Shown: positions 4,036 through 57,772 of the stretch, in pieces | Layout: every line of letters begins with the position of its first letter | Numbering within the stretch: the stretch's first letter is position 1 | NCBI GenBank assembly: GCA_963758525.1 | Contig: CAVWVQ010000003.1 | Span: forward strand, 2,560,001 to 2,624,000 | Direction: 5' to 3' | DNA from: an uncultured Phycisphaerales bacterium | GTDB taxonomy: Bacteria > Planctomycetota > Phycisphaerae > Tepidisphaerales > Tepidisphaeraceae | Length of the DNA: 64,000 nucleotides | Made by a program: the position numbers and the translations under genes | The notes under the pieces: generated by a model | What the model was told of the DNA's origin: nothing | Seen by the model: the letters and a program-made list of their open reading frames with translations, nothing else | Databases searched by the model: none

Positions 4036-5783
4036 ATGAAGGATCTCACACTAAGTCGAGGGACGAGCGCCGAGCAGTTTTTGGCTGATCCCGAGTGCTG
4101 CGCCAATGGGCGGACCTTTGCCGGCGATGTTCGTGGTCGACGAGCTATCAGTCGCCGGCGTTTGCGGGCGCCTGGTATCGCGTTTATGCCGAAAGGTTCG
4201 AGCCCGTCATCGTGACCGCCCGCAGCGAGACAGCCGAACTGTGCGGAATTCTCTGCCTTGCCGTCTCACGCGACGATGGAACATTGGTGTTCGCGGGGGC
4301 GCATCAGTCGGAATACCAGAGTTGGGCAAGCAGTCCGGAATGTGACAGCGAGTTTCCCCTGGCCGCCGTGCAGAGGGTGCGCGGCGAATTTCCGGACAAG
4401 CCGCTGAAGTTTCAATATCTGCCGCCGGGAGCTCCGCTGGATTGGCTCGGCGATACCCGGCTTCGATCACGCTTCGTTCTCATCAAAAAAGTCCGGCCGT
4501 TGCTGCGCTTTGCGCAGATGAGCGCCGATTCGTTGAACAAGGCTAACAACAAGAAGCGGTTGAAAGGCCTCAAGAAACTGGGCGAGATCGAGTTTCGCCG
4601 GCTGACTTCCGCGGACGAATTGGAGGCGGTTTTCGACGATTTTGCGGATTTCTGCAATCTGCGGCTCGGCGCGATGCATGACATGGAGCCGTTCGCCGAT
4701 GATCCGCTGAAAAGATTGTTTCATCTCGAGATGATGCGCCAGCCCGGCCTGGTCCATGCGACGATTCTGAGGGCGGGCAATCTGCTGGCCTCGGCGCATT
4801 TCAACATGCGCGACCGGAAGCAGCTTCATCTGAATCTCATCGCCCACAACCCCATCCTGGCGAAGCATTCGCCGGGGAAATTTCACGTTCACATGCTCTC
4901 GCAGATGCTGATTGCCGAGGGATACGAGGAGCTCGATCTGACTCCCGGCGGCGACCCCTACAAGGAGCGTTTCGCCAACGCACATGACAGCGTTTCCGTG
5001 TTGCACTTCCCCGCGACGAAAGTGTCGCGGGTGAAACTGATGCTTCAGGCGCGCGGCGAATCGTGGGCGCGCAGTGGATTGAGTGCCGTCGGCGTTCATC
5101 CGGCCAGGGCCCGCCGACTCGTGGGAGTGGCGCGCGATTCTTCCCTCAAAGATGTCGTGGCGCCCCTCGCGCGTCTGGGGGATTGTGTTCACTCGACTCG
5201 TGAGACAAAACTCTACGTCAGGCAGATCGCGGAACCGATCGCGGCATCGGGAGACGGGAGGCTGTTCCGCCGCGATGTGATCAATGATCTTTTGAACTAT
5301 CGCGTTCCACCGGGCGGACTGCCGCGGAAGCGGTTTCTGTTTGAGGCAATGGATCGGCTTGAGGAAGGGCAGCACCTTTACAGTTGCGTCCGCGAAGGGG
5401 GGCTGATTTACCTCGGCTGGGTGATCGAGCGGCCCAGCGAAGTCTTCGTGTCGCGCGTGCTTCCCGGCCTGACGCTGCCGGCGGACAGCGCATTGATTCT
5501 GGATCTGCGCGCTTGCGTGCCCGCCGACGGCGCGGAGCTCGGCCCGGCTTGCCTCTCGGCGATGCTCGCGGATCTATCCCACGCAAACGGAATCCAACGC
5601 GCGGTCATGGCCGTCTCCGCCAACCCGGGCCAGACTCAATGGCTCGAGGCCGCGGGCTTCTCGTGGGAGCGATCGTTATTCGTCAAAAACTCGTTCGGCC
5701 GCACGAGGCATTGGACCTGGCAGGCGTCGCCATCGGTGGCGACCGCGAAAGTTCAAATGCTTCCGGTATCCGCCAACCATTGA
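4036..5783 (+). CDS. GNAT-family acetyltransferase, CelD/BcsL-like (frameshift near 4093)
   Basis: MKDLTLSRGTSAEQFLADPE joins LRQWADL..STSYQSPAFAGAW; HSPGKFH..LDLTPGGDPYKERFA are GNAT-6 motifs; second GNAT-like C-terminal region. Confidence 0.75.
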
Positions 5784-47052: not shown

Positions 47053-47220
47053 ATGCGCGGGCTCTGCGGAATTCGCGTTTTCGCGCAATTGAACCGCGCA
47101 CCTTGCATGGGCAGGATGTCCATGCCACAGGGGCGCGATTCACTGGCTTGCCCTTCGCGGGAAAAAAGTCTGTTCAGCGCCGGTCCGGTGAGACAGGTGC
47201 GACATTTCGAGAACCTCACA

Positions 47221-48113
47221 ATGCCCGGCGAATTTGATTTCATCCAGTGGATCAGAACCCGGTCGCCTGCGACGGCGGTCGTGCAGATCCCCCCTGGCGA
47301 CGATCTGGCGGCGCTCAAATGGGACCCGTCCGACCTGCTGCTCGTCGGCGTTGATCAGGTTCTCGACGGCGTCCATTTCGACTCGGCGGTTCATTCTCCG
47401 CGCAACATCGGTCACAAGGCAATGAATCGCAATCTTTCCGATTGCGCCGCGATGGCCTGCCTCCCGGTTGCCGCGCTGGCGTCGGTCGCGCTGCCTGGAG
47501 GCGCGGGCGTCGAATACGCAAAGGAACTCTACGGAGGTCTTCGCGCGGCTGCCGACCCGTTTGATTGCGCCATCGTCGGGGGGGACACCGGCGCCTGGGC
47601 CGGTAAGCTCGCGCTGAGCGTGACGATTCTGGGCGCAGCGCCGGGATCGCGCCGACAACGCGCAGCGGCGCCAAGCCTGGAGACACGCTCTACGTCACCG
47701 GCCCCCTGGGCGGCAGCATCCGCGGCCGGCACATGCGCTTCGTGCCGCGCGTCTACCTGGCGCGGGAGCTGGCCTCGCACGGGCGCATCACCGCCATGAT
47801 CGATTTGAGCGACGGATTGGCGCGCGATCTGGGGCACATCTGCCGCGAGAGCGGCGCGGGCGCGATCGTTGATGCCGATCGAGTGCCTATTCACAACGAC
47901 GCTCTGGAATTATCACAGGCCGATCGGGTCGATCCGCTCGCGCATGCCATTGGCGACGGCGAGGATTATGAGCTGCTTCTGACCAGCGCCGACGATCTTT
48001 CAAGGTATGGCGCGATACCGATCGGACGGATGATTGCAGGGCGCGAAATACTGATACGAACCGAGGCGGGGGTGAAGCCGCTCGCAACCGGCGGATGGGA
48101 GCACACGCTGTGA
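47221..48113 (+). CDS. thiL: Thiamine-monophosphate kinase (frameshift near 47640)
   Basis: GEFDFI, PGDDLA, DGVHF, NLSDCAAM, VGGDT / MIDLSDGL..DLGHI..ESG, GEDYELL, GWEH. Confidence 0.92.
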
Positions 48114-48710: not shown

Positions 48711-49055
48711 ATGCGTTGTAACTACTGCCAGAGCAATGATTTTCGTTACTCAGCCTTCAAGCCGGAAGACTTTTTTCTGCTGCTCGTGCTGATTCGGCCT
48801 TTCCGTTGCAAGGAGTGCGAAGAACGCACCTATCGCTTCGTTGGAGCGCTCGTTCTCAGCCAAATCGCACGCCGGCTGGGCCTCGACGACTACTTTTCGC
48901 GAGCCATGGACCTCGCCCAGCAGCAAGCGATCAAGTTCCGCGAGTTCACCACGTGGCGCAGTTCGCCACCGAGATTGCAGGAACGGGCTATAATGCCTGC
49001 ATTCTCGCCAAGCGAAGATGATGAAGCCACCATGGACGACTCGCTCTCGAATTGA
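48711..49055 (+). CDS. Hypothetical Zn-ribbon protein
   Basis: GGAG RBS; CNYC ... RPFRCKEC with a short hydrophobic segment between. Confidence 0.65.
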   Translation: MRCNYCQSNDFRYSAFKPEDFFLLLVLIRPFRCKECEERTYRFVGALVLSQIARRLGLDDYFSRAMDLAQQQAIKFREFTTWRSSPPRLQERAIMPAFSPSEDDEATMDDSLSN

Positions 49056-49851
49056 AGCCGCCCTGGCGTGCTATCGGCAGTGCTCTCTGTGCGAACATCG
49101 CTGCAACGTGGATCGGACCGTCTCGCCCGCCGGATTTTGCAAAGCGCGCGACAACGCCAACGTATTTCGGCATCGCATCGAATACGGCGAAGAGCTGGAG
49201 CTGATCCCGTCCCATCTGTTTTATCTTTCGGGGTGCGATCTGCGCTGCGGCTTCTGCATCGCGGGCATCAACGCGTTTGATCCTTCCCGAGGAACCAGGC
49301 TGACGAGCAGCTTTTTCAATGACACTATTTCTTGGGGACTCGATCGGGGGGCGCACAATATCCAGTGGGTAGGCGGCGAGCCGACTATCCACGTGCCGGC
49401 CATTCTCGACGTGATGTCCCGCTGCTCGAACTTGCCGCCCGTTGTCTGGAAATCTGATTTCTATGGTACGCCCGAGGTTTTCGAATTGCTGGATGGTGCC
49501 GTCAACGTCTACGTTGCCGACTTCAAATTCGGCAACGACCGATGCGCTCGGCGGATTGCGGGGATCGACAACTACGTTTCAGTGGTCACTCGAAATCTGA
49601 AGATTGCAGCAAGTCAGTCCAAATTGATCATCCGCCATTTACTGCTGCCCGGCCATGGTGAGTGTTGCTATCGTCCGATTGTGAATTGGCTGCGCGACAA
49701 CATGCCATCCGCGCGATTCAGCCTGCGCGACAGCTATTTGCCCAGTTGGCGGTCGGCGCAATTTGAAGACCTCGCGCATCCCTTGAACCCGCAACAGGGC
49801 CGAGACGCCCTAGACCTGGCCAATCGGATGGGGCTCACGGTGATCCAATGA
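49018..49851 (+). CDS. Radical SAM protein, PflX-like
   Basis: CSLCEHRCNVDR..GFC N-terminal Cys cluster, GCDLRCGFC (CxxxCxxC), VGGEPT, YVADFKFGN, IIRHLLLPGH..CC; start uncertain. Confidence 0.88.
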   Translation: MMKPPWTTRSRIEAALACYRQCSLCEHRCNVDRTVSPAGFCKARDNANVFRHRIEYGEELELIPSHLFYLSGCDLRCGFCIAGINAFDPSRGTRLTSSFFNDTISWGLDRGAHNIQWVGGEPTIHVPAILDVMSRCSNLPPVVWKSDFYGTPEVFELLDGAVNVYVADFKFGNDRCARRIAGIDNYVSVVTRNLKIAASQSKLIIRHLLLPGHGECCYRPIVNWLRDNMPSARFSLRDSYLPSWRSAQFEDLAHPLNPQQGRDALDLANRMGLTVIQ

Positions 49852-50051
49852 CCAACCGCGAAGATGCAATCGAGGACGAAACCACGATGACGGAAATTAC
49901 CATTCAGCCGGATGGACGTGTTTACATATTTGGGACATCCCGCCAGGTTCTGGATATTCTGGCGGACCTGGATCCGCTCTCGCCAAAACTGCAACTGCTG
50001 CTGAATGAAGTCAAACGCCAGGAAAAGATCGACACAACTGCGAGGCTCTGA
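49848..50051 (+). CDS. Small hypothetical protein with DUF2997-like hairpin motif
   Basis: ATGA overlap with the radical SAM gene; EITIQPDGRV. Confidence 0.65.
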   Translation: MTNREDAIEDETTMTEITIQPDGRVYIFGTSRQVLDILADLDPLSPKLQLLLNEVKRQEKIDTTARL

Positions 50052-50085
50052 ATTGAGACAGCAACGTTTCACCGATTCCTCTGAT

Positions 50086-50215
50086 CCCCTCCCCTGGCAC
50101 TCCGGGGGAGGGCCAGGGTGGGGGCCCGATCCGCGGAAGTCGATCGCCACTGAACGGAAATTCGAACACGCCCTGCCCTCACCCCAGCCCTCCCCCGGAG
50201 CACCGGGGGAGGGGG
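50086..50215. repeat. CCCCTCCCCC/GGGGGAGGG palindromic element
   Basis: cccctcccctggcactccgggggagggccagggtggggg ... ccctcaccccagccctcccccggagcaccgggggaggggg; partial relatives at ~52715 and ~52860-52900. Confidence 0.75.
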
Positions 50216-50230
50216 AAAGCCACTCTTAAA

Positions 50231-51918
50231 GTGTCACGGATTCAACCCGCAGCTCAGCCCCTGCCCGCCGCCGCAACTGCATCGCCGACGGTTCCACAAC
50301 CGCCTGCCGCGCCGGGCTCTGAAATGATCGCTGCCGCGGGCAAGCGATTGGTCGATTGTCTTCGCCCCGAAGACGAGCTTGAGGTTCTGATCCGTGCCCG
50401 GTATCCGATCATCTACGTCCTCACCTGGGAAGAAGAGCGGGTGGAAAAAGTGCTGGCGGAAATCGCCGCCGCGCGCAGCAAGAAATTCCACGTCTGGTCT
50501 TACACCCAGGGAATCGTCAAGTACGGCGCCGAGCCGCAGCGCGCCAAATCCGGTACGGGCAGCACCACCGATCCGCTGTCGGCCCTGGACGCGGTGTTGC
50601 AGCACGTCGAGCCCGCGATTTATCTCTTCAAGGATTTTCATCCGTTCACCGAAGAGAACCGCGCTAATCTGGCCGTGATCCGGCGGCTGAAGGACGTCGC
50701 ATATCATCTGCGCGACACCTACAAGACGATTGTGATCGTCGCGCCGGTGATGCGAATCGCTCCCGAGCTGGACAAGGACATCACCGTGGTGCAGTTCCTG
50801 CCGCCGGATGTGAATGACTTCAGCAAGCTGCTCGATCGGATCATCGAGGATTTGAAGGACAAGCCGCAGATCAAGATCAATCTCGACGCCGCCGGCCGCG
50901 AGCGGCTGGTGCACGCGGCGCTGGGCCTGACGCTCAAGGAGGCAGAAAACGTCTTCGCCAAAACGCTGGTTCTGGAAGGCACGATCGACACGGAGGACAT
51001 CAGCATCGTCTTTAGTGAAAAGCAGCAGATCATCCGCAAGAGCGGCCTGCTCGAGTATTTCGCCAGCGACGAGCAGTTCTCCCATGTCGCGGGGATGGAC
51101 AATCTCAAGCAGTGGCTCGTGAAGCGCAGCAGCGCCTTTACCGAGCGCGCCGCCAAGTTCGGTCTTCCCTCGCCTCGCGGGCTTCTGCTGCTGGGCGTGC
51201 AGGGGTGTGGAAAGAGCCTTTGCGCAAAAGCGGTGGCAAGTCTTTGGAAGTTGCCGTTGTTGCGATTCGACGTCGGCCGCATGTTTGGGAGCCTGGTGGG
51301 CTCCAGCGAAGACAATATTCGCCGTGCCATTCAGACTGCCGAGAGCGTCGCTCCCGCCATTCTCTGGGTGGACGAGATCGACAAGGCCTTTGCCGGGTCC
51401 GTCGGCTCCGGCGGAAGCGACGGAGGCACTGCCGCCCGCGTGTTCGGCACGTTCCTCACCTGGCTGTCAGACAAAACCGCGCCGGTCTTCGTCATCGCGA
51501 CGGCCAATGACATCAGCCAGTTGCCGCCCGAATTGCTCCGCAAAGGCAGGCTCGACGAAATATTCTTCGTCGATCTCCCCAACGCGCCGGAGCGGCGGGC
51601 CGTCTTTTCGATTCATCTGCAAAAGCGCGGACGCGCGCCGGAAAACTTCGATCTCGATACGCTCGTGCAGCGTTGCGACGGCTTCAGCGGCGCTGAGATC
51701 GAGCAGGCGATCGTGTCGGGTTTGTTCGACGCATTTGACGCGGGGCACGAGCTCGACACCGCCACGCTGCTGGTCAGTCTGGAGGAGACCGTTCCCCTCT
51801 CCAAGACAATGAGCGAAGATCTCAATCGACTGCGCACCTGGGCGCAGGGCCGGGCGCGCCCGCTTCGGGCGCCATTGCGTCCGCGGCGCCCGCAGCGCGC
51901 CGGAAGATCGAACTGTGA
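50231..51918 (+). CDS. Ycf46-like AAA+ ATPase (apparent frameshift near 51860; true C-terminus ...ARRKIEL*)
   Basis: [84 protein letters not shown]; start 50231 or 50323. Confidence 0.88.
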
Positions 51919-51943
51919 AGATGGAATTTCACCGGAGGCATCC

Positions 51944-52411
51944 ATGAGTTCCTGCATCATCGTGACCCCGTTGATCATTGCCGGCTGGCCTGTCATTTCC
52001 GCCGCGGTGACTGCCGCAGTGGGAAGCCTGGGATACAGCATCGTCGTTGCGCCTTCGACCGCGGCCCTTGCCGCCTCGAAGCTCAAAACCCTCAATCGCG
52101 CGGAAATCGATCTTGAGGACAGCGAAGTGCTTCAGGAGACCGGATCAACAGGCGGCCAGATCGTTGTCGAACGGGCCGGCATTCGGGCCGTCTTCACGCG
52201 CGACGCTCGCGGCGCGCTGAAGCTGTGCGTTGAAGGCGAAGGGCATTCCAAGTCTGACTTGAAAAAAATCGGCGAAGAGCTCATCGGCCGGGTGACGCAG
52301 CAATATGCCTATCACAAGATCGTCTCCGAGCTGCAAAACCGCCACATGTCGATCGTGGACGAAGAGGTGACCGCCGACCGGACTGTGAAAATCCGCGTCC
52401 GCAATTTGTAG
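51944..52411 (+). CDS. DUF1257-like protein with hydrophobic N-terminus
   Basis: Own GGAGG RBS; ends VTQQYAYHKIVSELQNRHMSIVDEEVTADRTVKIRVR, the DUF1257/Ycf35-type C-terminal pattern. Confidence 0.72.
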   Translation: MSSCIIVTPLIIAGWPVISAAVTAAVGSLGYSIVVAPSTAALAASKLKTLNRAEIDLEDSEVLQETGSTGGQIVVERAGIRAVFTRDARGALKLCVEGEGHSKSDLKKIGEELIGRVTQQYAYHKIVSELQNRHMSIVDEEVTADRTVKIRVRNL

Positions 52412-52420
52412 AGGAATGCC

Positions 52421-52630
52421 ATGGCTCAGGAAGAACTCGAGATCGAAATCGCACCGGATGGGAAAGTGACTGTCACAACGAAAGGGATTAAGGGCCCCGC
52501 CTGCATGGACTACGCGGATCTGATCGCCCAGATCGTCGGCCGCGAGGAAAGCCGAGTGAAGACCGCCGAGTACTATGAGGAAGCCGAGCAGACCGAGCGC
52601 CGCGTCGATATCAAGCAACGGCGAGGATGA
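52421..52630 (+). CDS. DUF2997 family protein
   Basis: AGAGGA RBS; EIEIAPDGKVTVTTKGIKGPACMD...TAEYY. Confidence 0.85.
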   Translation: MAQEELEIEIAPDGKVTVTTKGIKGPACMDYADLIAQIVGREESRVKTAEYYEEAEQTERRVDIKQRRG

Positions 52631-52921
52631 TGGATCACCGTCCGACGCTATCACAATCTTCCGTCCATGGTCAGATCTGGAATAGATCGTCGTTCAATAT
52701 CCCCCGCGCGTTTTCCCCTCCCCTAATACGCCGGAGAAGGGTCATTGTCGCCCGATGTTTCACCTGGAGGTGCAGGTGACGCGGTGGTGAGGTCATCCAA
52801 CTGTCCCTAGGAATTTGTCGCGTTGGTTGAAGCCTTCTGAGGTACTCGCAAACAACCGCCCAGCCCCAACCCACCCCTCCCCGCGAGTACCAAGGGAGGG
52901 AGAAGAGCCGGACCGCCTCCC

Positions 52922-53940
52922 ATGCAATGCACCAACTGCGGCTTCCAGAACATGCCGGGCAGCGAATTGTGCGGCAGGTGCAGCACATCGCTGGGCCTCG
53001 CCACCGCGGTCATCGACGTAAACCCCCCGCGCACAGCGCCGCCAGCAAGCGGCTGCGCCGGTTGCTCCCATTCGGCAGAGCGTACTACCGCACCCGCGAT
53101 GCAGTACGCGCGGCTGACATTGCCGCGGGGGTGCGCCACGCGAACGCGATTCTCCCCGCTGGACTCCTCCTGCGCCTGATCGTTCCCGGCTGGTCACACT
53201 TTGCTCTCAAGCAACCGATCCGCGGACATCTTTTTCTGTGGAGCTTCGTGCTCTTTGTTCTGCTGAGCTTGTTCTGTCTCGGATCAACATGGGGAGCCAT
53301 CTGGCTGGGGATGGCCTTCAGCGTTCACTCGTCGGCGGCGATGGATATCGTGACCCAGACATTCAGCGACGCCGGCGTTCGCGATCGAATCGTGCGCTCC
53401 CTGGTCATCTCGGCGATTCTGGGAGTACTTCTCTATTGGCCGGCGATCTGGTTCATCGGCGGAGTGGCGCAGCCTCATACGGTCCAGACTGCTCTTGCGG
53501 CTTTTCAGCCCAATGATGTGGTGCTCGTCAACCAGTGGGCAGTGCCCAAACGCGGCGATATCGTTTTGTACGAGATCAATTACGCCCCGATGAATCTGCC
53601 CAATCGGGGACGCGAGCATGTGGTAGTCTGGTACAATGGCGAAAATATAGATCGAATTCTCGCGGTTCCCGGCGACCGTGTGCAATGTGATTCCGGCAGG
53701 CTCCTGGTCAACGGCTCTCCGTCCGCGTGGCAGCCGTTGAATTCTCATCCGATGCCGCAGTCTCTGAGTCTGACCATGCAGAGCGAACATTATCTCATTC
53801 TCCCCAGCGGCGCGCCCGGTGTTGTCACCTTCCAGGATGTAAACTTCTGGAAGAGCACCGGCGACGTCGAGCGAGGGCAGATTGTCGGGCGGGCCTGGCT
53901 GCAGACCCAGCCGTTGTCTCGCTTTCACGTCATTCGTTGA
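52922..53940 (+). CDS. Zn-ribbon plus membrane plus S26 signal-peptidase-like protein (frameshift near 53030)
   Basis: CTNCG..N...CGRC; IVPGWSH and ~3 TM segments; NDVVLVN..PKRGDIVLY..DRILAVPGDRV..LLVNG..QIVGRA. Confidence 0.72.
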
Positions 53941-53950
53941 TCGGAGCGGG

Positions 53951-54738
53951 ATGATGAAGAGATTCGATCTGCTTGAATTTGATGATCGGCAGGAGCCCTC
54001 TCGGGCGCAATTGCAACATCCGCCGATCGCCCGCGCCGAAGATCACGACGAACAGTACTGGATTAAGGCGGCCACTGAGGATCGTCGCAATGGATTCCAT
54101 GAGTCGGCGCTGCGTCACTATTCCCGGGCATTGGAGCTGGACAAATCCGTCGTTGCCGGCTGGGTCGGACAGGTGCAGATGCTGATCGCGCTGGCTGAAT
54201 ATCCCGAAGCCGAATTGTGGAGCCGCAAGGCGCTCGAACTGTTCAAGAATAACGTCGATCTGCTCGCCGCCCGCGGGCAGGCGCTCTGCCGTACCGGCGA
54301 TCTCAAAAACGCCCAGGCGAGTTGCGACGCCGCCATCAATCAGCAGGGAATGCACAGCTATCCCTGGGTCGCGCGCGGCGAGCTGATGCTGGCGCAAAAT
54401 GAAGATCTCGATACCTTCTGCTTCGACAAAGCCGTTCAATTCGACAATGACTGGCTGCTTCTGCTGGAGATCGGCGCCATCTATCTTCATTACGGCCGCG
54501 GCACCAAAGCCCTGCAACGCACCCGCCTTGCGGTGGAAAGAGCGCCGGAGCATGCCTATTGCTGGTATCGTCAAGGCGTCTGCGAGATGGCTGTCGATCT
54601 GACCGGAGCCGCGGAAAAGAGCTTCAGGCGTTGCATGCAACTGATGCCCCAACACGTGCTCGCGCGCGGGCGCTCAATGAACTGAAGCAGAAGAACGGCG
54701 CAGTCCGCGGCTTCCTCCGCCGGTTATTTGGTTCCTGA
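53951..54738 (+). CDS. TPR repeat protein (frameshift near 54670)
   Basis: ALRHYSRALELD..AGWVGQ, RKALELF, CFDKAV, AYCWYRQG; reconstructed end ALNELKQKNGAVRGFLRRLFGS*. Confidence 0.82.
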
Positions 54739-54853
54739 TGACTTGCGATGACTCAACCCCTCATCAACCCGTCATTAGCCGCTGCCCTTGGGCAGCGTAC
54801 CTCCCGGCGTGTGTGCGTTTTTGCACACACTCATCAGTTGGAAAGGTGAGCTT

Positions 54854-55912
54854 ATGCCCGTCAGCCTCGATCACATTCTGCAGGCCGGACGCGAGCTGGG
54901 CGCCAGCGACATCCATCTCGTCCGCGGCGTCTCCCCCGCCTTTCGCATCCACGGTCAGATCCGTCTGGCGAAGCACGAGCCGCTGACGGAAGAGATGCTG
55001 CGCTTGCTGCTCGACCAGTTGCTCACGGAAAAGCACAAGAAAATTCTCGAGGACGAATGGCAGCTCTGCTTTTCCAAACACTGGCCTGGCATCGGCCGGT
55101 TCCGCGCCAGCATCTATTTCCATGGCGGGTGCCCGGAGATGGCGATCCGCGTCTCGGAAAGAGAGATTCGCACCCGCGAGGCGCTGCGGCTCCCGCCGGT
55201 GATCGACGAGCTTACCCGCCGGCCAAACGGCCTGATTCTCATCACCGGCCCCACCGGCGTCGGCAAAACGACAACGCTCAACTACATGGTCGATCTGATC
55301 AACCGCGAGCGCCGCGCAAAGATTGTGACAATCGAAGATCCCGTCGAATACGTCCACGAGAACCGCAACAGCATCATCATTCAACAGGAGGTGCACACCG
55401 ACACCCCCTCGTTCAGCAAAGCGCTGATTCACGTGCTGAGGCAGGACCCCGATGTGATTGCCGTCGGCGAGATGCGCGATCTGGAGACGATGGCCACCGC
55501 GCTCACCGCCGCCGAGACCGGCCATCTCGTTCTCGCGACGCTGCACACTCCCGACGCCGTGCAGACGGTGCAGCGCATCTACGGCGCGTTTCCCGCCGAT
55601 CAGCAGAACAACGTCGTCTACCAGTTATCCAATTCACTGCAGGCGATCGTCGCTCAAAATCTGCTCCCCTGCGCCGATGGCAAAGGACAGGTGCTCGCCT
55701 GCGAGATCTGCGTCGCGACCCCCGCCATCCGCAAGCTCATCCGCGACGGCGAATCGCACCTGATGAACAACGAAATTCAGATGGGCAAGAAGTTCAACAT
55801 GCAGAACATGGACACCGCCCTGATGGACCTTTATCAGCGCGGCGAAATCACCTACGACACCGCCGTCTCCTCCGCCCGCGATACCAATGCCTTCCGCCAT
55901 AAGACAGGGTAA
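54854..55912 (+). CDS. pilT: PilT/PilU-family type IV pilus ATPase
   Basis: ASDIHL, GRFRAS, GPTGVGKTTT, TIEDPVE, LRQDPDVIAVGEMRD, AETGHLVLATLH, AIRKLIRD. Confidence 0.9.
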   Translation: MPVSLDHILQAGRELGASDIHLVRGVSPAFRIHGQIRLAKHEPLTEEMLRLLLDQLLTEKHKKILEDEWQLCFSKHWPGIGRFRASIYFHGGCPEMAIRVSEREIRTREALRLPPVIDELTRRPNGLILITGPTGVGKTTTLNYMVDLINRERRAKIVTIEDPVEYVHENRNSIIIQQEVHTDTPSFSKALIHVLRQDPDVIAVGEMRDLETMATALTAAETGHLVLATLHTPDAVQTVQRIYGAFPADQQNNVVYQLSNSLQAIVAQNLLPCADGKGQVLACEICVATPAIRKLIRDGESHLMNNEIQMGKKFNMQNMDTALMDLYQRGEITYDTAVSSARDTNAFRHKTG

Positions 55913-55927
55913 AGAAAAGGTACAGAA

Positions 55928-56107
55928 GAAGGCACGGAGGCACGAAGGGAAGGAGAAGCAAGCGCAACTTGGAGGTCAACAATGCATCGATTCGCCAAAC
56001 GGCACCGCCGTGGCTTGCCCTTCGCGGCCGGTTCCAAGGACGCACCGCTTCCACCTCTCCTGTTCCTTCCCTTCGTGCCTCCGTGCCTCCGTGCCTTCGT
56101 GCCTTCC
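55928..56107. repeat. Inverted octamer repeat cluster (GGCACGRA / TYCGTGCC)
   Basis: gaaggcacggaggcacgaagggaagga ... tccttcccttcgtgcctccgtgcctccgtgccttcgtgccttcc. Confidence 0.75.
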
Positions 56108-56167
56108 CCTCGTTGCCTTCCCCTCAATTGACTGCCTTTTTAGCCACCGATACGATACCCCCTCGCT

Positions 56168-56258
56168 GGAGAGATGGCCGAGTGGCTGAAGGCGACGGTT
56201 TGCTAAACCGTTATACGGAGTCAAATCCGTATCCGGGGTTCGAATCCCCGTCTCTCCG
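56168..56258 (+). tRNA. tRNA-Ser (anticodon GCT), CCA not encoded
   Basis: GGAGAGA acceptor pairs with TCTCTCC; anticodon arm acggt-ttGCTaa-accgt; long variable arm; GGTTCGAATCC T arm. Confidence 0.95.
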
Positions 56259-56300
56259 TTCTAAAACTGGTCTCGTTCGCAAATGGCTTAATTGAAGCAC

Positions 56301-56395: not shown

Positions 56396-57772
56396 ATGCC
56401 CACCACAAAAAAGCCACGTCCGACTGCTCATTCCGGTCACACCGATAGAGGGAACATCCGCGATCTGAAAATTCAGCGAGTGGGAAATGTGACCATCTAC
56501 AAGCGGGGACCAAGCTACTACCTGTATTACCGCGAGGATGGCAGCAGTCAGCGGCGCAAGGTCGAAGGCAACCTGGCAGTCGCCAAAGCCTCCGCCGCCA
56601 AGGTCGCCGCGGCTCTGGCCGAACAGCGACCCTCGCCGCTGGGATTTCAGCGGACCGCCCCTGGCGCGTTTGTCACCGGGTATCTGGACTTTGTCGAGAA
56701 TGTCCAGGGCCTGGCTTGGCGTACGGTCGACCGTTACCGGGCGGCCCTCGACCGCCTTCTGGACTTCTGCACGGACACGGGTGTCACTGCGATCGACGCC
56801 ATCGATGAGGCCACCATCGAGGATTTGGTCCGCTGGCTGCGTGGACAGACTCGAACCCGCAACGGCTGCGAAAAGGGCACCCGGGACTTGTACAAGGTCG
56901 GCGGAATCAAGTTCATCCTGAGCACCTGCCGCACCGCCTTCAATTGGGCTGGCCGGCGACGGATGCTCCCTCCGTATGTCGAGAATCCCTTTAGCCGGTT
57001 CCCCATTGATCAACTCCGCGACTCTGAGGCGGATGAGGAGGACCTCCACGTCTTCACCCCGGAGCAGGAGAAGGCATTCTTCGCAGCCTGCTCGGACTGG
57101 CAGAAGGCGCTGTTTCTGCCCCTGGCGACGTACGGCATGCGGGTCGGTGAGTGGACCCACGTGCTGATCGAGAACGTCGACTTCAAGGACGGGACGATCC
57201 AGATCTCCTCCAAGCCCGAGATGTTCTGGCGGGTGAAGACGGCCCGGCGGCGCTGGCTCCCCCTCACGGCCGAGATGACCGTGTTGTTGAAGAAGCTGAT
57301 CGGCCGGCGTACGGCGGGGTTCGTGCTGCTCAATGAGCATCAGTTCAAGGGTGACAAACTTCCCGCGAGCGAGTTTGTCTCGGATGAGCAGTTCCGCAAG
57401 CACCTGGCAACGCTGGTCGCGGAGCTAGAGGGCAAGAATCCCCAAGCAAGTAAACGCGACAAGCGGCGGGTTGTCACCGCCTTCTGCCGGTCACTCGGGC
57501 AGGTGCCAGTCAAGCGGGTGCAGAGCGAGTTCTGTGAGCTGACACGAGAAATCGGATGCCCGGACTTCACCCGGACGCACGACTTGCGGCACCTTTTTGC
57601 CACGCGTGCCCAGGAAACCGGGACTAATCCGATCTTGGTGTCGCAGATCACGGGGCATCGCTCGCTAGAGATGCTCAAGCGCTACACACACGCGAGCGTG
57701 GCCGCAAAACGCGAGGCGGTGGAGCGCATGACATCCCCGCAGCCTGAACTTCGAGAACCGAAAGATCCATGA
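56396..57772 (+). CDS. Tyrosine recombinase / integrase
   Basis: YGMRVGE (R), VKT (K), HDLRH (HxxR), TGH, RYTH (Y); N-terminal arm-like YYLYYREDG; TVDRYRAAL core-binding region. Confidence 0.92.
   Translation: MPTTKKPRPTAHSGHTDRGNIRDLKIQRVGNVTIYKRGPSYYLYYREDGSSQRRKVEGNLAVAKASAAKVAAALAEQRPSPLGFQRTAPGAFVTGYLDFVENVQGLAWRTVDRYRAALDRLLDFCTDTGVTAIDAIDEATIEDLVRWLRGQTRTRNGCEKGTRDLYKVGGIKFILSTCRTAFNWAGRRRMLPPYVENPFSRFPIDQLRDSEADEEDLHVFTPEQEKAFFAACSDWQKALFLPLATYGMRVGEWTHVLIENVDFKDGTIQISSKPEMFWRVKTARRRWLPLTAEMTVLLKKLIGRRTAGFVLLNEHQFKGDKLPASEFVSDEQFRKHLATLVAELEGKNPQASKRDKRRVVTAFCRSLGQVPVKRVQSEFCELTREIGCPDFTRTHDLRHLFATRAQETGTNPILVSQITGHRSLEMLKRYTHASVAAKREAVERMTSPQPELREPKDP

Follow-up and report, generated by a model that had tools for sequence, protein, structure and literature searches.

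A conserved planctomycete gene cluster is an undescribed variant on the Ycf46-DUF1257-DUF2997 core

The ycf46 operons of cyanobacteria and plastids and the DUF2997-ycf35-fed7 cluster, which between them comprise genes for a Ycf46-type AAA+ ATPase, a DUF1257 protein (Ycf35) and a DUF2997 protein, are the closest described relatives of the gene cluster reported here. In the published accounts, the function of this trio is given as largely unknown in cyanobacteria too (PMC7496141, PMC13060386) and Ycf35 is called uncharacterised (PMC13060386). The cyanobacterial ycf46 operons are stress-induced (PMC7496141, PMC13683863, 10.1101/2020.12.15.422378), DUF2997 and ycf35 adjoin the ferredoxin gene fed7 (PMC4284462), and DUF2997 is mentioned in PMC4284462 and 10.1101/2025.10.13.678797. 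For another part of the cluster the nearest account is that of Streptococcus pyogenes SipA, a pilin assembly factor described as an S26 protein without the catalytic dyad, for which binding of a partner on the cell surface has been proposed (PMC4049620). We analysed a 64,000-nucleotide stretch (the window) of an uncultured Phycisphaerales bacterium of the Tepidisphaeraceae (assembly GCA_963758525.1, contig CAVWVQ010000003.1, positions 2,560,001 to 2,624,000); its genome comprises six contigs, and the one with the window is 5 Mb long. In the window we found the same trio accompanied by five further genes.

The eight-gene cluster is a real, conserved and undescribed variant on this known but unexplained core. 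Literature searches returned no account of it (subscription journals and bioRxiv supplements not covered). Its members, in window coordinates, are as follows.

49018..49851, plus strand: radical S-adenosylmethionine (SAM) enzyme; Pfam Radical_SAM E 1.6e-8; CxxxCxxC motif and six further invariant Cys
49848..50051, plus strand: small hairpin-helix protein whose gene overlaps the stop codon of the radical SAM gene; HHalign matches to DUF2997 and to NrdG-type enzyme tails
50231..51918 (start 50231 or 50324), plus strand: Ycf46-type AAA+ ATPase; AAA E 1.6e-28
51944..52411, plus strand: DUF1257 (Ycf35)-like protein; DUF1257 E 6.8e-5; a separate gene in relatives
52421..52630, plus strand: DUF2997 protein; E 3.5e-14; invariant GxxC and Thr
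52922..53940, plus strand: zinc ribbon, three transmembrane helices and an S26 domain predicted to be dead; Peptidase_S26 E 1.5e-7; a single gene in relatives
53951..54738 (as assembled, the open reading frame (ORF) ends at 54685), plus strand: TPR protein with an RFxxLEF N-terminal peptide and an amphipathic C-terminal helix
54854..55912, plus strand: PilT-family ATPase; TIGR01420 404.8 bits (cut-off 319.1)

The labels "Ycf46" and "PflX-like" (for the radical SAM enzyme) come from a first-pass annotation of the sequence; no library model returned either for these proteins. We give a probability of roughly 40% to the reading that the eight genes would build one remodelling machine, tethered to the membrane and assembled around a modular Ycf46 core. 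The first-pass annotation had likewise proposed an undescribed membrane-associated machine with two ring ATPases, which agrees with the sequence features and with the outcome of the literature searches.

GTDB yielded 143 stretches encoding a DUF1257-like protein; the best 80 were kept, four of which repeat loci found earlier through the S26 protein. These 80 loci are the top of the ranking and mutually related, and the counts below use loci with enough flank. The closest were from Tepidisphaeraceae or Phycisphaerae. A full-length Ycf46-type AAA gene adjoins the DUF1257 and DUF2997 genes, and the expectation of the first-pass annotation that the other large genes would be syntenic with this trio held up: radical SAM, S26-like, TPR and PilT genes accompany the DUF1257-like gene in 62/64, 69/73, 66/69 and 57/60 loci, as do the small ORF (65/68), the AAA gene (69/70) and DUF2997 (77/78). 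All profiles were co-stranded in 48 of 52 planctomycete loci in which both flanks sufficed, exact gene order was kept in 55/56 complete loci, and no flanking gene recurred in more than 8 of the 80. Median intergenic gaps in related loci were 3-50 nt, which suggests that the genes may form a single transcript; a promoter and terminator scan of the cluster gave no higher signal than shuffled sequence.

Searches with other members gave a similar picture. A first GTDB scan with the single S26 protein as query found no match; five relatives found elsewhere with that protein are colinear, one ending at a contig edge and one with its first two genes inverted. An independent TPR-profile search, in which only 8 candidates were scored per genome, matched 9 of 300 other genomes of the phylum, and 8 of these 9 loci carry the other large members. 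Both same-genus genomes had no match to the cluster query. PilT-family genes, unlike the patchy cluster, were present in 61/61 planctomycete genomes searched. The eight-gene unit is fixed in content but patchy in distribution. Three complete genomes (G112, G128 and G267) carry it, so a host for genetics likely exists.

Some relatives show local additions. An unnamed gene of 200-370 aa is inserted after DUF2997 (L040, L041, L045, L047) or after the AAA gene (L038, L082), and four of these inserted genes are one family without a Pfam match. The zinc-ribbon/S26 gene is tandemly duplicated within the cluster at L039. At L141, in a complete genome, a rhomboid-family gene (4226-4921) whose catalytic His motifs, judged by eye, seem lost lies immediately upstream of the radical SAM gene; it was rejected as a general member, being upstream in that locus only of the set.

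Core, radical SAM enzyme and membrane half

The AAA protein retained K297, D350/E351, N395, R406 and R409 in 68/68 sequences, so that Walker A and B, sensor 1 and the Arg fingers are intact, and the closest solved structures to its AAA domain (residues 255-461) were p97/Cdc48. It has one recognisable AAA domain; its N-half and C-half profiles did not match (0.4%), though the N-half may be a degenerate first ring. An RRKIEL-type tail ends 61/67 of these proteins compared to 7/1988 background ORFs, and is reached in the window only after a frame change (see below). In a FastTree phylogeny of 74 rows, the 20 cluster rows formed their own clade with support of 98. The DUF1257 profile was matched by 76/76 cluster members at E<=0.1. 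The predicted model of the DUF1257-like protein (predicted local distance difference test, pLDDT, 69.7) had its best fold match at Z 6.2 to an adaptin appendage, KA1-type fold, a common arrangement. Its best match in a viral fold set was unnamed (template modelling score 0.38), a viral scan with its alignment found no match, and profile comparison of DUF1257 with DUF2997 found none either. DUF2997 kept G25, C28 and T48 in 73/73.

The first-pass annotation had suggested structure prediction for this part of the core. The predicted DUF1257-DUF2997 complex scored 0.56 compared to 0.00 for the best control, with runs agreeing on at least 91% of contacts and a partner pLDDT of at least 56; the mark used was reached by 116/157 solved pairs and 2/215 mismatched pairs. 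The models thus lend weak support to binding between the two proteins.

The radical SAM enzyme has the CxxxCxxC and GGEP motifs, and C73/77/80 and C22, C25, C29, C41, C216 and C217 were present in 61/61 sequences. It had no PDB sequence match at E 0.01 and fell far under the cut-off of glycyl-radical activase models. No glycyl-radical enzyme or leader/core precursor peptide recurred in the 80 loci, and the substrate might be a core protein.

The small ORF that follows the radical SAM gene found no match in Pfam or PHROGs, and in the Atlas it belongs to unnamed clusters (the first 0.92 Planctomycetota, the second 0.85 Verrucomicrobiota), which is a lead only. HHalign related it to DUF2997 (65%, E 5.9e-5) and to the tails of five NrdG-type enzymes (72-90%, with controls at or below 1.9%). 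To these we added 120 further NrdG-type enzymes found by Cys motifs, scored with a relaxed hairpin pattern that was written after a strict one had separated the groups poorly. The relaxed tail occurred in 29/38 NrdG-type enzymes beside trio genes and 0/15 beside NrdD-like genes, and in 24/30 short loci with neither a trio nor an NrdD gene. The cluster enzyme has no such tail (0/60), and the small ORF then follows it, often overlapping; absence of the tail together with the adjacent ORF points to a split version of the same design. The small ORF is likely a detached tether of the radical SAM enzyme, judging from these sequence matches. The first-pass annotation had supposed that the radical SAM enzyme may modify the small proteins and that these may be assembled at the membrane, or extracted there. 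The small ORF, however, resembles a detached enzyme tether more than a substrate, and DUF2997 keeps its Cys in loci without a radical SAM match as well. Stand-alone NrdG-type enzymes with a hairpin tail and no trio gene within 7 kb were also seen (L205, L227, L229).

A maturation pathway could be read from the same half of the cluster. The radical SAM enzyme would modify or load a core protein, for example at the DUF2997 Cys or with a metal cluster, and the AAA protein would act as a chaperone in the manner of MoxR and not extract proteins. Radical SAM enzymes of two different subfamilies have been recruited beside the trio, the DUF2997 Cys is invariant, the AAA pore loop is non-aromatic, and PMC4284462 places cyanobacterial DUF2997-ycf35 with the ferredoxin gene. 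However, the trio and its Cys persist without a radical SAM match on an IncC backbone, in integrated elements and in phages, and the pathway leaves PilT and the dead peptidase unexplained. We regard it as decidedly improbable.

In the membrane half, the S26 domain had the catalytic Lys in 0/68 and the Ser in 3/68 sequences at the aligned positions, Asp usually replacing Lys, and scored 40.1 bits with TIGR02227, below the cut-off of 47. By these substitutions the Ser-Lys dyad is lost and the domain is predicted to be catalytically dead. The protein has three hydrophobic helices, basic inner loops and an invariant His, features that would place the zinc ribbon on the cytoplasmic side and the S26 domain facing the periplasm. 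The model of a relative (L018; pLDDT 89.2) predicts helices at 100-120, 124-147 and 154-183; its S26 fold matched SipA (Z 12.7, root-mean-square deviation 3.0, 125 aligned) and LepB (Z 11.9, 3.1, 132 aligned), and its transmembrane part matched no fold beyond common helical bundles.

The TPR protein begins with an RFxxL[DE]-hydrophobic motif in 58/64 sequences compared to 0/1988 background ORFs, and its C-terminal helix has a hydrophobic moment of 0.81, compared to 0.41-0.52 for five other members. This amphipathic tail recalls the membrane-targeting helix of MinD. An RFxxLEF-type peptide also ends an unrelated gene upstream of the AAA gene in 5/6 loci of a neighbouring AAA clade; overall it was found in 8/54 non-cluster Ycf46 loci compared to 0/61 control loci and 2/1120 windows of the host's own genome, one of these being the cluster TPR gene itself. 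The hairpin-tail and RFxxLEF tests were both designed post hoc and used related genomes, and their results are leads rather than proof.

PilT has intact Walker A, Asp box, Walker B and His box motifs (61/61). In a quick tree of 84 rows, for which every second cluster sequence and that of the window were taken, the 31 cluster rows lay on one side of a branch with a stem of 0.66 and an approximate likelihood-ratio support (SH-aLRT) of 100, which confirms the dedicated PilT clade that the first-pass annotation had asked about. Fixed substitutions relative to other PilT proteins lie in the Walker A flank and, several of them, in the N-domain.

In agreement with the first-pass annotation, PilB, PilC and N-methyl pilins had no match within the 64-kb window; from the cluster it is approximately 72 kb to the nearest PilB/PilC pair and approximately 64 kb to the nearest N-methyl match. 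No PilB, PilC or pilin gene recurred in the 80 loci either, although the cluster may act in trans. The cluster could serve pili or pilin-like proteins encoded elsewhere, with the dead S26 domain binding prepilins and PilT retracting or dismantling a filament on a signal from the AAA core. SipA was the top fold match, within 1 Z of LepB; the cluster PilT keeps an AIRNLIRE-like motif; the host genome encodes PilB and PilC at several loci and has 62 matches of N-methyl pilin type; and PilT-family genes are general in the planctomycete genomes searched. On the other side, no pilus gene is a conserved neighbour in the 80 loci, the cluster PilT differs from other PilT proteins at many fixed positions, SipA works for unrelated sortase pili, and the host genome already has a pilB-pilT-pilC locus. 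We consider the pilus explanation somewhat unlikely, if the most serious of those competing with the remodelling machine.

Mobile relatives and the proposed machine

Relatives of the AAA protein were found on 675 plasmids (574 conjugative) and in 57 phage records. Most annotated mobile contexts that we opened had DUF1257 and DUF2997 or matching ORFs with variable partners; at L154, L156 and L162 neither matched beside the AAA gene. Trio partners included a transmembrane helix-hairpin-helix (TM-HhH) protein with an NrdG-type enzyme (Arthrobacter, Rhodococcus, Bacillus) and Hsp70/GrpE (Pseudanabaena), and accessory gene sets track AAA clades. DUF2997 was found in 20 of 151 genomes of the phylum, and of the 29 DUF2997 places the 20 analysed, own-genome and known cluster copies being left out, included none with a PilT or S26 profile match. 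Our literature searches found no paper on these other mobile modules.

Several of these modules are worth recording. The host genome has two integrated-element paralogue loci of the trio on the same contig as the window, at approximately 4,814,000-4,818,700 (L014) and 2,739,700-2,749,300 (L016). In both, the trio is joined by a small hairpin protein and by an unnamed protein of 329 aa, a gene set that recurs in many planctomycete genomes; the first adjoins three tyrosine-recombinase-like ORFs and the second a WGR-ligase gene. On an IncC backbone (L152, 7010-10386), genes for AAA, DUF1257-like and DUF2997 proteins, for a membrane protein whose tail is basic and hydrophobic and for a small hairpin protein make up a conserved block that is apparently unstudied. 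Treponema plasmid pTRESU01 (L147/L153) has an NrdG-type enzyme and a Ycf46-type AAA gene amid repeated VgrG/baseplate-annotated genes, with a DUF2997 gene approximately 20 kb beyond them. At L165, L170, L172, L178 and L181 the trio has an upstream protein ending in RFxxL[DE], at least two of them with a downstream pentapeptide-repeat gene; this is another undescribed variant.

Such contexts raise the question of a conflict system, acting against phages or competitors and domesticated from mobile elements, in which the membrane protein would sense an invader and the ATPases would trigger arrest or remove an invader protein. The patchy distribution (the TPR match in 9/300 genomes, and absence by the query used from both same-genus genomes), the plasmid and phage relatives and the two paralogue loci would fit, but PADLOC 2.0 gave only partial generic AAA (IetA), mad8 and pVip domain matches, and nuclease and toxin domains are absent from the cluster. 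Its surroundings in the 80 loci show no recurring defence genes or integrases; the tRNA-Ser gene and integrase downstream are not conserved neighbours; and most defence cargo is neither so well conserved in sequence nor so constant in gene content. We judge a conflict role to be quite unlikely. Less probable still is that two separate modules, radical SAM with the trio and S26 with TPR and PilT, are merely co-regulated neighbours. The trio does occur alone or with other partners, and several loci have insertions between DUF2997 and the zinc-ribbon gene; however, both halves form congruent dedicated clades that are almost never found apart, and the TPR protein shares its peptide with genes beside other Ycf46 AAA genes.

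In the remodelling machine that we favor, the dead signal-peptidase membrane protein would hold a client while two ATP-driven motors, which the TPR protein would likely bridge, dismantle it or drag it from the membrane. The AAA, DUF1257-like and DUF2997 proteins would be the core, the latter two weakly predicted to pair, and the radical SAM enzyme would likely be tied to it through the small hairpin protein, which in other systems is the enzyme's own tail. The TPR protein likely sits on the inner membrane face by its amphipathic tail, docked on the core by RFxxLEF and holding PilT. Outside, the client is likely bound by the three-helix protein, whose zinc ribbon would signal or anchor inside; membrane-anchored precursors are our best guess for the clients. 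By analogy, the module is likely switched on by stress, because the cyanobacterial ycf46 operons are stress-induced and 8 distinct loci of 85 anchored have a co-oriented extracytoplasmic function (ECF) sigma gene at most 4 kb upstream of the AAA gene.

Several points weigh against this machine. On plasmids, in phages and in integrated elements the trio occurs with none of PilT, TPR and S26, and contact between the cluster's two halves is therefore not required. Pore loop 1 is Leu324 in 66/68 AAA proteins, not an aromatic residue, as in most of the wider family, which makes classical p97-like threading doubtful. Complex scores at or below 0.60, the range of the 0.56 obtained here, cover 18 of the 157 solved pairs and both passing mismatches. 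The five NrdG-type tails behind the 72-90% matches were chosen from seven by hairpin pattern, the tail was also present in 13/37 long loci with neither a trio nor an NrdD gene, and the query by which the metagenome set was ranked for likeness itself had a tail. Three of the eight RFxxLEF matches had been seen before the pattern was settled, four of the five clade loci with it come from one family, and 46 of the 54 non-cluster loci are without the peptide. Four of the 52 loci are incomplete (L043, L079, L082, L091), one locus (L143) has AAA, TPR and PilT without matches to other members, and no ECF sigma gene was seen adjoining the window's own copy.

A bolder version, which we consider unlikely, would make Ycf46-DUF1257-DUF2997 the core of unrecognised modular remodelling machines. 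The docking code would be a DUF2997-type hairpin and an RFxxLE peptide, into which Hsp70, membrane anchors, radical SAM enzymes and PilT are plugged. The form in the window would be a ubiquitin-free extractor resembling endoplasmic-reticulum-associated degradation (ERAD), in which the dead signal peptidase captures membrane-anchored precursors, a pilus-freed PilT pulls, and the tethered radical enzyme marks or cuts.

In cyanobacteria and plastids, Ycf46 and Ycf35 have long lacked an explanation, as has the trio where it occurs on IncC plasmids and phages. In the cluster it has constant partners whose chemistry can be read, together with two short motifs that can be deleted, and binding and function thereby become directly testable. 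If the remodelling machine is real, the PilT proteins of this clade would have been put to a new use, as a pilus motor that acts beside a dead signal peptidase and apart from pilus genes.

Frame changes and flanking sequence

Three frame changes affect the cluster as assembled. One near 51850-51890 joins the AAA gene to the DUF1257-like ORF, one at 53023-53032 separates the zinc ribbon from S26, and one at 54667-54682 truncates the TPR tail. Relatives had AAA and DUF1257 in one ORF in 0/76 loci, and the zinc ribbon and S26 in one ORF in 69/71. Single contigs of a near-identical strain had one extra base at 53032 and 54666, weak evidence at a depth of 2.3-2.9; these contigs also had an extra base at the break in an upstream AIRS-domain gene and left the AAA break uncovered. 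That gene (thiL-like, 47053-48113) is likewise split by a frame change near 47630, which points to a general indel error rate in the assembly. The three cluster frame changes are probably assembly errors, and an AAA-DUF1257 fusion was rejected as biology because no relative is fused (the reads did not cover the break).

Two further features lie in or beside the cluster.

48711..49055, plus strand: orphan Cys-rich ORF, not a member; no Pfam family above cut-off
50086..50214, no strand: inverted pair of a palindrome like repetitive extragenic palindromic (REP) elements; further copies at 52714-52744 and 52874-52900; outside the system

The first-pass annotation had counted nine co-directional genes. 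Their shared strand and the stated domains stand, but eight are conserved, and the ninth, the orphan ORF, was rejected as a member after finding no match in the 80 related loci or in 60 other genomes. The palindromic repeats it had noted in the two largest gaps are present; however, they belong to a dispersed family with 102 matches across the host genome (0 for a reversed control), which rules them out as parts of the system.

Downstream of the cluster, a tRNA-Ser(GCT) gene (56167-56259) and a tyrosine integrase gene (56396-57772) mark the start of an island. That the cluster is cargo of this island found no support: the integrase is not beside it in five relatives and does not recur in the 80 loci. 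Between PilT and the tRNA gene, positions 55928-56106 hold a second repeat family of GCCTCCGTGCCT-type tandem and inverted copies with 25-nt perfect arms.

Comparison with known systems

The cyanobacterial and plastid ycf46 operon (slr0373-slr0374-slr0376; Synpcc7942_0416-0418), together with DUF2997-ycf35(DUF1257)-fed7, contains the same three core families. AAA proteins of cyanobacterial plasmids share 44-46% identity with the query across 96-97% of its length and lie beside DUF1257 and DUF2997. No PilT, TPR, dead S26 or comparable radical SAM protein is described with the cyanobacterial trio; moreover, the DUF1257-like protein here is longer than cyanobacterial Ycf35 and lacks its MSH start, and the AAA protein has its own clade. 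Other mobile Ycf46-trio modules have the same core, usually with a second hairpin protein and often with a membrane protein or radical SAM enzyme, but their accessories and AAA clade differ and none matched the PilT or S26 profiles.

The cluster PilT resembles PilT/PilU in passing TIGR01420, in keeping all ATPase boxes and in matching Geobacter/Aquifex-type PilT structures at E 1e-87. It is set apart by its own clade, its fixed substitutions and a locus without PilB, PilC or pilin. With SipA the cluster shares an S26 fold in which the catalytic Ser and Lys are lost; in contrast to SipA, its S26 domain belongs to a larger protein with three transmembrane helices and a zinc ribbon and has no sortase or pilin neighbours.

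In ERAD, p97 works with the pseudo-rhomboid Derlin and a TPR-like adaptor to extract membrane proteins. The cluster has a likeness to each of these parts, in its nearest AAA structure, its predicted dead membrane protease and its helical-repeat adaptor, and one locus (L141) adds the upstream rhomboid-family gene; this is a resemblance and not membership. It differs from the p97/Cdc48 system in having neither a ubiquitin system nor an aromatic pore loop, in its one recognisable AAA domain, and in the addition of PilT and a radical SAM enzyme.

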